DNA of 26,212 bases, taken from positions 1 to 26,212 of the forward strand of contig JBDRFY010000056.1 in assembly GCA_043818275.1 (NCBI GenBank), read 5' to 3'. Position numbers and translations under genes: made by a program. The notes below the pieces were generated by a model. That model saw only the letters and a program-made list of their open reading frames with translations, was not told the origin of the DNA and did not search any database. Of this stretch, positions 8,461 through 26,070 are shown piece after piece; positions within the stretch are counted from its first letter, which is position 1; each line of letters starts with the position of its first letter. The stretch comes from a bacterium. GTDB lineage: Bacteria; Babelota; Babeliae; Babelales; JAUWHS01.

Positions 8461-9465
8461 ATGGAAAATAACAAAAAGAATGTTTATTTCTTTGACCAGC
8501 GTGGAAAACTTGTTGAAGAAAAAATCGAATGGAAGTTATTTTTAAATTTTATTTATAAAAATAAAATAGGTCTTTTTTTTAGAAAAATTTTAAATAAATC
8601 GTTTGCAAGTAAAATTTTTGGTTTTTTTCAAAACAGATTTTTTAGTAAATACAGAATCAAGTCTTTTATAAAAAAATATAATATTGATGAATCTGAATTT
8701 GAAAAAAATATAAATGAAATTAAAAGTTTTAATGATTTCTTCACAAGAAAACTCAAACCAGGATCCCGGCAGATAGACAAAAATAATTTTTCTAGCGTGA
8801 TTTCACCAGCTGATAGTAAAATTTTCGTTATTCCCCAAATTTATTCGAATTTGAAATTTAATGTTAAAAACTGTCAGTTTGATCTGAAAAAATTTCTTGG
8901 TGATAAGAAATTGGCTCAAAACTATGAAAATGGGTCAATGTTAATTTTCAGACTTGCTCCGTATGATTATCATCGATATCATTTCCCCATTGATTGTTTT
9001 GTGGAAAAAGCAAAATTAATAAATGGTTTGTATGATTCGGTAAATCCATTGGTTTTTAGCGATGATGTTAAACCATTAACTGAAAATGAACGGAAACTTA
9101 TAATTTTAACCCCCCTTCGCCAAGGCTTCCCGCTTCGCCAAAGCTTCGCAGGACATGTCGGAGGGCAAGAAAGTGAAAAATTCGCTGACGTTTTAATGGT
9201 TGTTATTGGTGCAATGATGGTTGGAAAGATTAAATTGACATATAAACCTGATGAAAAATATAAAAAGGGTGATGAGTGTGGTTATTTTGAATTTGGCGCA
9301 TCTTCGATTGCATTATTATTTAAAAAAAATGAAATAAAAATAAACGATGTTTTTATAAAAAATTCCGCAAAAGGGTTTGAAACAGAAATTAAAATGGGGC
9401 AAGTTGTGGGCAGCTTTTTTGAAAATATAAAAAAAGTTAGAGATCCTGAATCAAGTTCAGGATGA
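8461..9465 (+). CDS. psd: Phosphatidylserine decarboxylase proenzyme, with a 20-aa repeat-derived insertion and a repeat-derived C-terminus
   Basis: SFNDFFTRKLK, SPAD, RLAPYDYHRYHFP, NER, GAMMVG and KGDECGYFEFGASS (cleavage-site region). Confidence 0.93.
   Translation: MENNKKNVYFFDQRGKLVEEKIEWKLFLNFIYKNKIGLFFRKILNKSFASKIFGFFQNRFFSKYRIKSFIKKYNIDESEFEKNINEIKSFNDFFTRKLKPGSRQIDKNNFSSVISPADSKIFVIPQIYSNLKFNVKNCQFDLKKFLGDKKLAQNYENGSMLIFRLAPYDYHRYHFPIDCFVEKAKLINGLYDSVNPLVFSDDVKPLTENERKLIILTPLRQGFPLRQSFAGHVGGQESEKFADVLMVVIGAMMVGKIKLTYKPDEKYKKGDECGYFEFGASSIALLFKKNEIKINDVFIKNSAKGFETEIKMGQVVGSFFENIKKVRDPESSSG
9110..9169 (+). repeat. Nested pair of 30-bp GC-rich palindromic elements inserted in frame in psd (inner copy 9128-9157)
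   Basis: 39/60 nt are G+C in an AT-rich gene. The rejoined outer unit CCCCCCTTCGCCAAGGCTTCGGAGGGCAAG and inner unit TCCCGCTTCGCCAAAGCTTCGCAGGACATG match at 24/30 positions. Encodes TPLRQGFPLRQSFAGHVGGQ. Confidence 0.85.
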
Positions 9466-9520
9466 CAAAATAGAGAATCTTAATTTTTCTTTGTTATCCT
9501 GAACTTGATTCAGGATCTCT
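9439..9520. repeat. Inverted doublet of a 31-bp TGTC-tagged REP-like palindrome (9439-9469 and 9490-9520, 20-nt spacer)
   Basis: AGAGATCCTGAATCAAGTTCAGGATGACAAA and its reverse complement with 1 mismatch. Each copy has an internal ATCCTGAA/TTCAGGAT stem. Confidence 0.9.
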
Positions 9521-9558
9521 GGTTTTAATAATTTTTCATATTAATTTAAAGGGTAGTT

Positions 9559-10918: not shown

Positions 10919-12091
10919 GTGTCAGAAGGTGCTAGTGTTTCAAAATTAAGAGTAGGTGTTTTTTTTGGCGGAAAGGGAATAGAGAGAGAAGTTTCTTTTA
11001 ATTCTGGCAGAACGATTTGTGATCACATAAATGAATTTGAGTATGACACAGTTCCTATTTTTCAGCGATTTGATGGAGAGCTTTTTATTTTGCCATGGCA
11101 TTTTATGCACAGAGGTAAAATTTCTGATTTTATTAACAGGTTAGAAACAGAGGCAAAAAAAATATCCTGGGATGAGCTTAAAAATTTAATTGATTTTATG
11201 TACATTGCAACTCATGGAAGATTTGGTGAGGATGGGACAGTACAGGGATTTCTTGAAATTTTAGGAATTCCGTATCTTGGGGCAAAAGTTTTTGGCAGTT
11301 CTTTGGGGATGAATAAAATAATGCAGAAAACTTTTTTTCGGACCAATGGGATAGATGTGGCAAAAGATGTTTTTTTTTCCGCTTATGAAATTAAAAACTT
11401 ATCCAATGAAATAATTTTAAAAAAATTAAAAGAAAATAAAATAGATTTATCATGCGTTGTAAAACCAAATAATGAAGGTTCAAGTTTTGGTGTTGCGGTT
11501 GTTGAAAAAAAAGATGATTTATTAAATGCTATAAAAAAAACGTCAAAATGTGATAACCGATTTGAGCAGGATGTTATTGTTGAAGAAAAAATAGAAGGGA
11601 TGGAATTTGTTTGTGTTTGTTTGCAGAAAATAAATAAGAATGATAGCCCTACTTCGCATAAAGCTTCCGGTTTCGTACCGCAAAATAGCGGCACTTCGCC
11701 GGACGTGTCTTCGGGCATGTCTTCGACATGGTTTGCGTTGCCGATAACACAAGTTATTCCTGAAGATGGTTCAAAATTTTATGATTACGATCAAAAATAT
11801 ATGCCGGGTCGGGCATCAAAAATAACTCCTGCAAACTGTAGTGCGCAAGATCAGAAAAAAATTCAGGATGTTTGTATAAAAGCAACTGAAATTTTAGATT
11901 TTTCCACGATTTCACGTATTGATGGTTTTTTAACTAAAGATGGCAAAGTAGTATTGATTGATCCGAATGCTTTAACCGGAATGGCTCCAGCAACCTTTTT
12001 ATTTCATCAGGCTGCAGAAATTGGTATGAGTCATACTCAACTTATTAATTATTTAATTGAAGTTGAATTGCAAAATTACAAAAGAGGTTAA
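10919..12091 (+). CDS. ddl: D-alanine--D-alanine ligase family protein, copy 1, with a repeat-derived insertion of about 24-28 aa
   Basis: FGG..EREVS, HGRFGEDGTVQG, VKPNNEGSSFG, FYDYDQKY and RIDGF ATP-grasp motifs. Confidence 0.88.
   Translation: MSEGASVSKLRVGVFFGGKGIEREVSFNSGRTICDHINEFEYDTVPIFQRFDGELFILPWHFMHRGKISDFINRLETEAKKISWDELKNLIDFMYIATHGRFGEDGTVQGFLEILGIPYLGAKVFGSSLGMNKIMQKTFFRTNGIDVAKDVFFSAYEIKNLSNEIILKKLKENKIDLSCVVKPNNEGSSFGVAVVEKKDDLLNAIKKTSKCDNRFEQDVIVEEKIEGMEFVCVCLQKINKNDSPTSHKASGFVPQNSGTSPDVSSGMSSTWFALPITQVIPEDGSKFYDYDQKYMPGRASKITPANCSAQDQKKIQDVCIKATEILDFSTISRIDGFLTKDGKVVLIDPNALTGMAPATFLFHQAAEIGMSHTQLINYLIEVELQNYKRG
11647..11730 (+). repeat. Nested GC-rich palindromic elements in frame in ddl copy 1 (outer 11647-11719, inner 11666-11707, trailing CATGTC-TTC-GACATG hairpin 11716-11730)
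   Basis: The outer CCCTACTTCGCATAAAGCT^TCTTCGGGCATG is interrupted by the 42-nt TCCGG-TTTCG-hairpin-CTTCG-CCGGA-CGTG. No counterpart at the equivalent position of ddl copy 2. Confidence 0.85.
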
Positions 12092-12094
12092 AAA

Positions 12095-13225
12095 ATGAAT
12101 AAAAAAATTAAAGTCGCTGTTTTGTTGGGGGGAAATACAAATGAACGTGAAATTTCATTAGAATCAGGACGAAATATTTGTTACAAATTAAATACGGAAA
12201 AATATGAAGTGTTACCAATTTTTGTTGATGACAAAATGGAGCTTTATAGATTAGATCAAAAATTATTAGTTCAAAATTCAACGCGTGAAATTGAAAAAAA
12301 AGTAACAGAAGAAATAAAAGTTAATTGGTCCGGCTTATCTGAAATTTGTGATTTTGTTTTTATTGCACTTCATGGAGGATTTGGTGAAAATGGGGCGGTC
12401 CAGGGAACATTAGAAATGCTTGGCCTTCCTTATAATGGTTCTGGAGTGTTAACGAGTGCAATTTGTATGGACAAAGTAAAAACGACAGATTTTTTGAGGG
12501 CTCATGGTTTTGATGTTCCTAATTCTTTTTTGATTCAAAAAAATGTTTGGCAGGAACAAAAAGATGAAAAACAAAAAGAAGATTTTTTAAAAAAATTATT
12601 AAAAGATTTTGAATTTCCTGTAATTGTAAAACCGCATGATGATGGATGCAGTTTTGGGGTTGCAAAAATTGAAAATATTTTTGAAACAATAAAACAAATT
12701 GATAATTTTTTTGTTAACTACAAAAAGGATTCAGTTTTGATCGAAGAATTAATAAAAGGGATGGAACTTACTTGCGGTGTAATTGGAAATGATAAAGTAA
12801 TTGCGTTGCCTCCAAGCAAAGCCGTTGCAGCGCAAGGAATTTTATCAATCGAAGAAAAATTTCTACCAGGCGCGGGAGAAAATATTACTCCGGCCCCGTT
12901 GCCCGAAGAATCATTAAAATTTGTTCAAAAAACAATGCAAGATGTTTATTCAACTTTAAATTGCAAAGGTTACGCTCGCGTTGATTGTTTTTTTCAAAAT
13001 GCGCAAGAAAGTAAAACGAAAAAAGACAGAGTTGTAATTTTAGAAATTAACAGTCTTCCCGGCATGACTCCGGCAACATGTATTTTTCATCAAGCGGCGG
13101 AAATTGGAATAAGACCGATGGAATTTGTGGATAAAATTGTTGAACTTGGTTTTGAAAATCACAAACAAGTTAAAACGGATATTAAAAATAAAATTTATGA
13201 AAAAATAAAACAAACAAATGTTTAA
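12095..13225 (+). CDS. ddl: D-alanine--D-alanine ligase family protein, copy 2 (divergent specificity residues)
   Basis: LGG..EREIS, LHGGFGENGAVQG, VKPHDDGCSFG, ARVD and LEINSLPGMT motifs. Confidence 0.88.
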   Translation: MNKKIKVAVLLGGNTNEREISLESGRNICYKLNTEKYEVLPIFVDDKMELYRLDQKLLVQNSTREIEKKVTEEIKVNWSGLSEICDFVFIALHGGFGENGAVQGTLEMLGLPYNGSGVLTSAICMDKVKTTDFLRAHGFDVPNSFLIQKNVWQEQKDEKQKEDFLKKLLKDFEFPVIVKPHDDGCSFGVAKIENIFETIKQIDNFFVNYKKDSVLIEELIKGMELTCGVIGNDKVIALPPSKAVAAQGILSIEEKFLPGAGENITPAPLPEESLKFVQKTMQDVYSTLNCKGYARVDCFFQNAQESKTKKDRVVILEINSLPGMTPATCIFHQAAEIGIRPMEFVDKIVELGFENHKQVKTDIKNKIYEKIKQTNV

Positions 13226-23361: not shown

Positions 23362-25380
23362 TTATTGAGTTGGTACGATAAAAATACTGCTTTTGAATTT
23401 TTGAAGGTTAATATTTTTTAATATTTCGTGAACAGATTTAAAATCTTTTGCTTTTATAAAAATTTGTCTGCATTCGGTTTTTTGAATTTTGTAAATTATT
23501 GGTTTTGATGGACCTAGTATTTTCAAATTTAAATTTTGATTTTTATTTTTTAGGATATTTGTAAGTTGATTTGAATCCGCTTCCAATTGTTCAATGTTAT
23601 CATTTTTCAATTCTATCTGAACAAGCCGGCCAAAGGGTGGATAATTTATTATTTTTCTATTTTCCTTTTCATATTGGCAAAATTCAAGATATTTTGTTTC
23701 ATCTAAAAAATTAAAGATTTCATGTTTCTGCATTGCCTGAACAATAACGTTTCCGGTTTTTTCGCCTCTTCCAGTTCTTCCTGCTACCTGAATTAATTTT
23801 TGCAGACATGTTTCAGTTGCGTTAAAAACAGGAAAATGCAGATTTAGATCAGCCCATAAAATTCCAACCAACGTTACATTTGGAAAGTGATAACCTTTTG
23901 TAATAACTTGTGTGCCGACTAAAATATCAATTTCTCCATCATTAAATTTTTGTACGGTTTCGTTCCATTTTCTTTTTTTTGTTGTTGTGTCCATATCTGC
24001 GCGTTCAATTATGGCAGTTGGAAACATTTCTTGTAATATTTTAACCGTTTGTTGTGTTCCGATTCCTTTTTTTAAAAAATTTTTTTCAGATGTTTTACAC
24101 TCTGGGCAGGCTGCAGGTAAGTTTTTTTTGTGATCACAATAATGACAACACAGTTTTTTTTGTTCCTCGTTATTATGCAGCGTTAGGCTGACAGAACAGT
24201 TAGGGCATTCAAAAATGAAACCACAGTTTTTACATTGAACAAAAAAGCTAAATCCACGACGGTTTATGTAAATTATGGTTTGTTCTTTTTTTTCCAGTTT
24301 TTCTTTTATTTGTTGTTCAAGTTCTGTTGTTATCCAAAAATTTTTGCGACGTTTTGTGGACCCCGGCGTAGCTTTATGCGTAGACGGGTTTTCATTGAAA
24401 TAAACAAATTTTATTTCTGGAAAATTTCCACCAAATCTTTTTTTTAGCTGAAAAAATTTCCAGTTATTTTTTTCAATATTGTATAAAGAATTTAAAGAGG
24501 GGGTTGCAGATCCTAAAAGTATTGGAATTTTATAAAAATTTGCGCGCCAAATTGCAAGTTCTTTACTGTTAAGTTTAGGATGTTTTTTTTCCTGAAATCC
24601 TGTTTCGTGTTCTTCGTCAACTATTATTAATCCCAGATTTGAAATTGGGAGTAGTATTGGTAAATGCACCCCAATTATTAAAATTGGTTTGCCTAAAATA
24701 AGTGAGTTCCACAATTCTTTTTTTTCTTTTTCCTTGCTCGCAGAATGAAATCCAAAGATTTCAATGCCTGAAGGAAGTTGTTTTTTTAATAAGTTTTGAA
24801 ATTGCAGACTTAATGTTACTTCTGGCAACAACAAAATAGTTGTTTTTTGTTCGTTAAAATTTTGCAAGATTAAATTTTTATAAATTTCTGTTTTTCCTGA
24901 ACCTGTAACTCCATGAAGTAAAGTTGGCGAATAATCTGAATTTCGAATAAACCCTTCAAGGTAATTAATTACTGTTTGTTGTTCTTTTGTCAGGTTTATT
25001 TCAATACTTTTTGTTTTTTCAAATTCATTTTTCCATGGAATTTGTTCACGGTCTTCTTCTTTATTATTTTTGAGCAAAAAATTTCTTATCCGTTGATGGA
25101 AATGAATTGGTTTTACGAAGTAAAATTCAGAAATTTTTTTAATGAAATCATAATAAAATGGATCCATTGGCATTTTTTCAAGATCAATTGCCTCTCTAAT
25201 TTCAAAATCTATGTTTTGAGGCTTTATTTTATGCTGATAAATAACAAGAGCCGGTAAAAGTTTGTTTTTTAATGGAACCTTAACTACTTTTCCAACTAAA
25301 AACTGATTTTTAAGCTTTGGTGGAATTTTGTAGGTCAGCTCTCTTGAAAATCCTTTAAGTAGTCTGACTAATATGTACAT
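23362..25380 (-). CDS. priA: Primosomal protein N' (replication restart helicase), with a short repeat-derived insertion
   Basis: GVTGSGKT, DEEH, GSATP, NRRG, four CxxC pairs, GTQ and QVAGRTGR. The likely start is ATG 25380 (ORF track 25413). Confidence 0.95.
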   Translation of the reverse strand: MYILVRLLKGFSRELTYKIPPKLKNQFLVGKVVKVPLKNKLLPALVIYQHKIKPQNIDFEIREAIDLEKMPMDPFYYDFIKKISEFYFVKPIHFHQRIRNFLLKNNKEEDREQIPWKNEFEKTKSIEINLTKEQQTVINYLEGFIRNSDYSPTLLHGVTGSGKTEIYKNLILQNFNEQKTTILLLPEVTLSLQFQNLLKKQLPSGIEIFGFHSASKEKEKKELWNSLILGKPILIIGVHLPILLPISNLGLIIVDEEHETGFQEKKHPKLNSKELAIWRANFYKIPILLGSATPSLNSLYNIEKNNWKFFQLKKRFGGNFPEIKFVYFNENPSTHKATPGSTKRRKNFWITTELEQQIKEKLEKKEQTIIYINRRGFSFFVQCKNCGFIFECPNCSVSLTLHNNEEQKKLCCHYCDHKKNLPAACPECKTSEKNFLKKGIGTQQTVKILQEMFPTAIIERADMDTTTKKRKWNETVQKFNDGEIDILVGTQVITKGYHFPNVTLVGILWADLNLHFPVFNATETCLQKLIQVAGRTGRGEKTGNVIVQAMQKHEIFNFLDETKYLEFCQYEKENRKIINYPPFGRLVQIELKNDNIEQLEADSNQLTNILKNKNQNLNLKILGPSKPIIYKIQKTECRQIFIKAKDFKSVHEILKNINLQKFKSSIFIVPTQ
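24356..24388 (-). repeat. Single GC-rich palindromic element in frame in priA
   Basis: Minus strand CCC-GT-CTACG-CATAAAG-CTACG-CC-GGG-GTCCAC, encoding (N)PSTHKATPGST. Same core as the ddl outer element (PTSHKAS). The distal boundary is approximate. Confidence 0.75.
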
Positions 25381-26049: not shown

Positions 26050-26070
26050 AGAGATTCTGAATCAAGTTCA
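26050..26070. repeat. Truncated copy of the TGTC-tagged palindrome
   Basis: AGAGATTCTGAATCAAGTTCA matches the first 21 nt of the 9439 copy at 20/21 positions. The right end is lost. Confidence 0.75.

Follow-up and report, generated by a model that had tools for sequence, protein, structure and literature searches.

A 30-nt hairpin nested in its own kind within a bacterial phosphatidylserine decarboxylase gene: a probable gene-less mobile element with a candidate GIY-YIG nuclease

In a bacterium of the Babelales, the gene of the phosphatidylserine decarboxylase proenzyme (psd, 8461-9465 on the plus strand, 334 aa) carries a 60-nt block at 9110-9169 that probably consists of two copies of a gene-less mobile DNA hairpin, inserted one after the other, with a small GIY-YIG nuclease as the candidate motor. 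The window analysed here is the whole stretch of 26,212 nt (contig JBDRFY010000056.1, assembly GCA_043818275.1), in which an earlier note had described one 30-nt element inside another. This description is accurate: excising the inner unit (9128-9157, plus strand), a complete 30-nt copy with a 6-bp stem, a 3x3 internal loop, a short apical stem and a 4-nt CANG tag, restores an outer unit from its left part (9110-9127, plus strand, unit positions 1-18, with GCT as its 3' end) and its right part (9158-9169, plus strand, unit positions 19-30, tag included), and the two units match at 24 of 30 positions with no gap. The inner boundary is uncertain by one T, since excision of 9129-9158 scores equally. 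The mismatches fall at unit positions 1, 5, 15, 22, 26 and 29; four of them form the two compensatory pairs that had been noticed, 1:26 (C-G vs T-A) and 5:22 (C-G vs G-C), and the remaining differences lie in the loop (15) and in the 3' tag (29). The units also have in common a C4.A23 mismatch, which folds as G.T or G.U on the minus strand. The G+C content of the block is 65%, against 27% in the remainder of psd.

psd is present in 24 of the 61 genomes searched, and 23 relatives were compared with the psd of the window. Judged from these alignments, the block is a true insertion, because all 23 orthologs are empty at the site (a 20-residue gap in 22 and a 19-residue gap in one). Assembly error is an unlikely origin of the block, and a 175-nt contig assembled separately from a public run spans 9065-9239 with no difference and no gap, at a depth of 2 and from a run that may be that of the source sample. 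The resemblance of the psd units to sites dispersed in the genome is not chance: at up to 8 mismatches the inner unit finds 28 sites and the outer unit 37 (the inner copy itself being in both counts), and each of 20 shuffled unit queries finds none in the same genome.

Both psd units are thus members of a dispersed family of 30-nt hairpins, of which a 42-nt long-loop form also exists. A profile search returns 96 sites in this genome at 18 bits or more and none in the reversed genome even at 14 bits, and 55 full-length units with the 3' CANG tag can be counted, 47 of them distinct. The tag reads CANG on the plus and CNTG on the minus strand; it was built into one of the collecting patterns and was found independently by the profile search, in which it was not fixed. 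Free-standing near-copies, which the earlier note's reading presupposed, do exist in this genome, the closest being 3 mismatches from the inner and 4 from the outer unit; beyond this genome, nested copies lie 2 (inner) and 1 (outer) mismatches away and free-standing outer-like copies 2. A 16-nt core of the unit is present in 42 of the 61 related genomes and, more widely, in at least 123 genome stretches from many phyla and in 114 viral stretches, and copies are found in both orientations and in all reading frames. The paired changes of the two psd units also persist in a larger alignment: 69 distinct units give a covariation score of 0.352 vs 0.102 +/- 0.013, for an input of 76 of 80 loci plus the inner unit of the window, a pattern that partly fixed positions 6-21 and the tag, and a score that does not model phylogeny. 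In this alignment 93.7% of stem cells are paired and double changes occur at 1:26 (31), 3:24 (8), 4:23 (26), 5:22 (14) and 12:15 (21), and the stem is conserved as pairing and not as sequence.

Which strand folds is suggested by the loops and by the mismatches. On the minus strand the apical loops of the units read CTTG and TTTA, and YYYR loops are described, in passages of PMC9975016, as the type II kind of DNA loop; the fit to this class points to the minus strand as the folded one, which we hold with moderate confidence. The earlier note had drawn attention to the wobble; C4.A23 does pair as G.T on the minus strand, yet few units have it (4 of 182 distinct ones), and it lends moderate support. 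In unbiased sets, stem mismatches of the C.A/A.C kind, which become G.T on the minus strand, number 43 vs 21 of the T.G/G.T kind; the stronger bias of the nested set, 38 vs 4, is set aside in favour of these figures, and pyrimidine-pyrimidine (39) and purine-purine (37) mismatches are about as frequent as wobbles. No published description of this family was found in the literature searched; for PMC3733652 and PMC11893778 the search covered running text, and the repeat may be listed in their figures or supplements.

Insertion of the unit is blunt, with neither duplication nor loss of target. For 27 of the 55 full units the genome also holds an empty paralog of the site, and exact removal of 30 nt restores it in 21 of the 27; the psd inner junction has three such empty paralogs. 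Target-site duplication of the MITE type was accordingly not found, removal of 30 nt being what recreates the empty paralogs. CAGG was considered as a 4-nt target duplication, an idea that fails on two counts: its two copies are found on the same side, and the host flank is constant where the tag varies. Resident hairpin repeats are each invaded at one register. One host family is present in 48 empty and 17 filled copies, all filled at one position and with 13 different inner stems; a second, TGTC-tagged family, the one that ends psd, has 18 empty and 4 filled copies; a repeat that flanks Y1 genes has 13 empty and 3 filled; and the unit is its own host in this genome, with 38 plain and 2 nested copies. 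GCT stands directly 5' of 21 of the 55 units here, of 13 of 81 in other genomes and of 7 of 82 on viral contigs, against a background of 1.6%, and CT precedes 29 of the 55 here; conversely, 68 of the 81 units of other genomes are not preceded by GCT, and the outer psd site is A+T-rich and has neither GCT nor a hairpin (z -0.8). Insertion at a GCT junction inside hairpins, those of its own kind included, is therefore a preference and no rule. Self-nests make up 7 of 215 units in unbiased sets, with insertion after position 18 in four and after positions 11, 12 and 14 in one each. Pre-insertion sites are predicted to fold in 8 of 49 cases vs 14 of 150 random ones, with an energy model that does not score mismatch-rich hairpins.

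Other conserved genes have gained residues in frame relative to their orthologs: dnaK 10 aa (4 orthologs), a GTPase 19 aa (5 orthologs) and priA 9 aa (compared with the sister genome of the same genus, G001). By its motifs we take the GTPase to be MnmE-like. The priA element (24362-24388, minus strand) is a 27-nt tagless hairpin of the family with a 5-nt loop, absent from G001; with a tag it would be 31 nt long and shift the frame. Two genes with a full unit show smaller gains, of 3-5 extra residues in uvrC (G000:C38, L581) and about 0-4 in alaS (G000:C19, L575), where host codons may have been replaced on insertion or the proteins compacted later. Units also occur within short tandem repeats with a period of about 6-7 nt, in several phyla and on viral contigs (L309, L351, L321, L465, L477, L489), and head-to-tail arrays with a 31-nt period (G023:C12:27113-27221, G023:C32:5469-5546, L371) display a mode of growth unlike nesting.

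The window holds further repeats. An inverted dimer of the second hairpin family (9423-9536; TGTC-tagged, CGTC-like), absent from G001, lies at the end of psd, which reads into its left arm and stops there, so that the dimer supplies the stop codon and extends the C-terminus. A second nest of the 30-nt family is in frame in a D-Ala-D-Ala ligase-like gene (11647-11730, plus strand), with a left arm that has a 5-nt loop, a 42-nt long-loop inner unit (11666-11707) and two degenerate right arms. The G001 ortholog (L546) has a nest at the corresponding site, the two species of the genus sharing the 5-nt-loop kind of outer arm; their inner units differ, that of the window being 42 nt long and that of G001 30 nt. 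In an ortholog from further away, the loop is shorter by 28-29 residues. G001 and five other relatives seem to have a single ORF of about 800 aa in place of the two ligase-like ORFs at 10919-13225. A partial hairpin of the TGTC family lies at about 26050-26070, and the contig end (26130-26206) is a repeat almost identical to the one that precedes a Y1 transposase gene on contig C36.

How did the psd nest arise? The earlier note proposed two separate insertions and no slippage duplication, and the order of the parts agrees: they run left-left-right-right, and a single tandem duplication would leave left-right-left-right. Sequential insertion is the best reading, and we consider it likely in the following form. 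The outer copy would have landed in psd at an A+T-rich site with no structure, and would have persisted because 30 nt leave the frame intact, the frame in use has no stops and the site forms a surface turn; it would then have offered a new preferred target, in which a variant circulating in the genus inserted at the GCT junction. Such a variant can be traced: the inner stem of psd, C4.A23 included, recurs twice in G001, in the ligase-like gene and in valS, both in frame, within units that are 27-28/30 identical to the psd inner unit. Counting psd, the same inner variant therefore sits in three different outers, which favours sequential insertion. The intermediate step is less visible. Of the 0-, 30- and 60-nt alleles that the earlier note proposed to look for, the empty form is that of all 23 orthologs and the 30-nt form was found neither among them (61 genomes, with one genome of the same genus) nor in 47 metagenome psd loci, where none was close and the best segment was about 50% identical; in four public runs, all represented by low-depth contigs, no joint skips 30 or 60 nt of the block.

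The missing 30-nt allele is also what would be expected if the nest had been built elsewhere and a single 60-nt composite had then moved into psd. Such nests, with the same register as in psd, are indeed widespread (at least 116 stretches), composites with 52/60 identity to that of psd are found in valS of G001 and in three sequences from other phyla, and in one host family of this genome a composite has been amplified whole (6 filled vs 1 empty). This history is nevertheless improbable in our view, given that no second copy of the psd composite was found in the genome, that plain units prevail over nested ones here, and that the inner variant occurs in the three outers just described. Nests elsewhere tell more about the process. 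From 81 matches, 78 distinct nests were retained, with one row left out, and at the 87 columns that distinguish inner from outer stems, pairing holds outer to outer in 54 and inner to inner in 63, and crossed pairing in 12 and 25; 20 of the 78 are nested deeper than two levels. In the set of 61 related genomes, 4 contain nests, 9 in all, and in 6 of the 9 the outer starts with CCA behind what looks by eye like the 3' end of a tRNA, as sequential insertion would predict. In 24 of the 78 nests the left stem of the inner unit is the same as that of the outer, vs a shuffled mean of 7.3 and maximum of 17, an excess inflated by genome-specific variants because the shuffle mixes genomes. Local copying does contribute to some nests elsewhere, and one might imagine a single insertion in psd, then self-copying by hairpin-driven slippage or template switching, and divergence afterwards. 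Homogeneous deep nests do occur, and the rare C4.A23 is common to both psd units, as such copying would have it. Yet the psd inner unit is closer to the two G001 copies than to its own outer (24/30), and four of the six differences are paired changes that match variants of the family; for psd we regard self-copying as very unlikely and retain the successive arrival of two copies.

What the insert does to the protein appears limited. Each unit measures 30 nt and psd stays in frame, as the earlier note had it, with the correction that each junction splits a codon (phase 1) and that non-coding copies, too, are mostly 30 nt long. Frame preservation is therefore a property of the family combined with a survival filter, with no sign of design; in the frame used by psd, none of 175 distinct units has a stop codon. 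Residues D118, D169/H171/H174 and G279-A280-S281-S282 of the protein align with maturation residues of E. coli PSD as given in passages of PMC7952604, D118, D169, H171 and S281 corresponding to D90, D142, H144 and S254 (S281 by motif). The cleavage motif (residues 279-282, 9295-9306) is G-A-S-S here and in G001 and G-G-S-T in most orthologs; in E. coli PSD, G253A is described as slowing cleavage and not abolishing it (PMC7952604, in part). The structure model (mean pLDDT 85.9) matches E. coli PSD and places the insert in a loop (223-238, pLDDT below 50) between strands 211-218 and 244-249, outside the catalytic motifs; the C-terminal tail is disordered in the model. Compared with its G001 ortholog, psd has a dN of 0.20 and a dS of 1.23 and is, by this estimate, under purifying selection. 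One could then ask whether the nest is kept as a regulatory RNA structure or a functional peptide, and the 60 nt do fold as mRNA, at a predicted -16.7 kcal/mol. We consider this extremely unlikely: the insert is absent from 23 of 23 orthologs, no Rfam family reaches threshold over 9110-9169 (weak miRNA-type matches lie on the long palindrome 9423-9536), copies elsewhere are in both orientations and all frames, and the loop is unstructured in the model. Most likely the 20 residues are tolerated baggage with no function for Psd.

The candidate motor of the unit is a single-domain GIY-YIG nuclease of 80 aa (PF01541; G000:C50:67836-68078), beside whose gene units are found. A search with one 80-aa GIY-YIG protein gave 465 relatives, of which the best 80, drawn from many phyla and with Dependentiae and Babeliales records among the top matches, were surveyed. 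Of these best 80 loci, 57 contain units, mostly upstream of the gene and in some cases flanking it on either side; 60 contain a tRNA or tmRNA gene, and in 33 a unit starts at the CCA end of the tRNA or tmRNA. The controls were 0/80 for the reversed loci, 0/17 for Y1 loci and 1/70 for psd loci, the single metagenome psd locus with a unit not being recovered by a stricter pattern. In this genome, which has six small GIY-YIG matches besides UvrC and six Y1 matches, 19 of 46 tRNA or tmRNA ends bear such a hairpin. Across the 61 genomes, unit and nuclease are found together in 33, the unit only in 9, the nuclease only in 4 and neither in 15, an odds ratio of 13.75 by hand tally that is partly trivial, the unit flanking the gene, and that comes from kin and not from independent genomes. 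Among proteins of solved structure, the nuclease has its best relatives in Slx1 and UPF0213. Small GIY-YIG genes of a second clade (G000:C75:30805-31020, C18:20566-20778; L032, L031), which groups away from the unit-linked one, are flanked by inverted copies of the hairpin family most often invaded by the 30-nt unit.

From these elements we propose how the unit could move. The recognised object would probably be a single-stranded hairpin of the minus strand, with its purine-rich 3x3 internal loop, its CTTG or TTTA apical loop and its 5' CNTG tag. More tentatively, and because of the analogy with SsnA, the small GIY-YIG nuclease might nick such hairpins in exposed single-stranded DNA, and host repair might patch the unit in, as a released piece or as a copy from a filled site; a fresh target would thereby be rebuilt inside, and nests would grow inward. 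Because GIY-YIG domains are hydrolytic, blunt insertion at unrelated sites would also need a joining step.

A transposase would bring the joining, and the same element might have made the same two steps in trans with a Y1/HUH transposase (IS200/IS605 or RAYT) or an IS110 recombinase, the GIY-YIG gene merely sharing the hairpin. The absence of target duplication and the CT bias of the junctions here agree with it, TnpA(REP) being described in passages of PMC8266576 as cutting single-stranded DNA between C and T with strand transfer; the six Y1 matches are at hand, and the unit has entered the Y1-flanking repeat. Against this stand the absence of units at the 17 Y1 loci, a control from one Y1 query and type whose loci are distant (32-41% identical save one short match), the local picture, in which one of the six Y1 genes of this genome has units nearby and the other five have none within 700 nt, the lack of a GTAG tag and the many targets that lack CT. 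We judge movement by such an enzyme rather unlikely, though a serious rival, and keep the GIY-YIG nuclease as candidate. In its broadest form the proposal would be a mobile DNA free of transposase and recombinase, in which a hairpin-specific 80-residue GIY-YIG nickase at tRNA and tmRNA ends and host repair together spread a 30-nt single-stranded hairpin. Since this unit would carry its own cut site, it would home into itself and into other selfish hairpins, and the resulting telescoped nests would be translated as parts of proteins across many phyla; we hold this form as rather doubtful.

The psd loop by itself is modest: ever since the Rickettsia elements, bacterial proteins have been known to contain in-frame palindromes. 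Less ordinary are a defined 30-nt substrate with a preferred junction, a candidate enzyme and, within a single genome, empty and filled sites that correspond to the base. The spread of short palindromic repeats is called poorly understood in passages of PMC8266576, and CGTC-type repeats are said, in parts of PMC3733652, to have no dedicated transposase; with one small protein and a few oligonucleotides, the question of how hairpins spread becomes testable. If a GIY-YIG nickase and host repair do move the unit, coding palindromes would gain a named motor, and the unit-linked nucleases may represent a second family of single-strand hairpin nucleases beside Ssn. The hairpin family also explains spurious loops of 10 and 20 residues in proteins of uncultured bacteria.

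Several known systems resemble parts of this picture. The GC clusters of yeast mitochondrial DNA are short, G+C-rich mobile palindromes in an A+T-rich genome and are sometimes in frame; they are organellar, unlike the 30-nt unit, and the likeness is one of description and not of sequence. We know of no nuclease of the small GIY-YIG kind linked to them. Rickettsia palindromic elements (RPEs) and intragenic REPs are, in the portions of PMC10969869 and PMC3733652 that describe them, in-frame palindromes in unrelated housekeeping genes of a small-genome bacterium that become part of the protein, with double inserts of 20-30 residues. Like RPEs, the 30-nt unit is multi-copy and dispersed (55 full copies, 47 distinct, none in the reversed genome) and, by predicted translation, in frame in unrelated conserved genes whose orthologs lack it. 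It differs in its minus-strand CNTG tag, which is neither CGTC (TGTC, CCTC) nor GTAG and sets it apart from the RPE-1 to RPE-10 and the CGTC or GTAG REP families, a comparison of tags and not of consensus sequences, in its 3x3 internal loop, in nesting copy in copy where RPEs form side-by-side dimers, and in its linked candidate enzyme.

The Ssn system is the closest to the proposed motor: a single-domain GIY-YIG gene of 80-95 aa beside oriented NTS/SRM hairpins that are also dispersed genome-wide, each hairpin bearing a short tag on the 5' side of its base (Chenal et al., 2025, PMC11893778, in its main text). SsnA cuts single-stranded DNA immediately upstream of the hairpin and restricts its cutting to one strand (same source). 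Here too a small single-domain GIY-YIG gene, a candidate nuclease by its sequence, is flanked by a hairpin. Nevertheless, the SRM pattern matches none of 80 unit cores and nothing in this genome, and it is found at 3 of 80 nuclease loci (best 80 of 465) vs 1 in the reversed control. The unit-linked nucleases form a clade separate from the SRM-flanked ones, split (95/98) from six others, three of them flanked by SRM, in a tree of 28 rows that omits SsnA and 17 loci with no picked short ORF. They also lie at tRNA and tmRNA ends, a term absent from the main text of PMC11893778, which reports cutting and not insertion.

REPtrons (RAYT/TnpA-REP) and the non-autonomous ends of IS200-IS605 share with the unit, as they appear in passages of PMC8266576, recognition of a single-strand hairpin (proposed here), junctions after CT (here in part of the units), no target duplication (here at 21 of the 27 sites with an empty paralog) and a tetranucleotide tag; unlike them, the unit has no GTAG and no linkage to the Y1 genes sampled, and the whole mobile unit is one 30-nt hairpin. 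Finally, REPs within other palindromes are described as regular, empty target palindromes not having been found in two species, in the part of PMC3733652 that treats them. Here, in contrast, empty and filled forms coexist in several host families, each invaded at one register, and the 30-nt unit hosts itself, to a depth above two.
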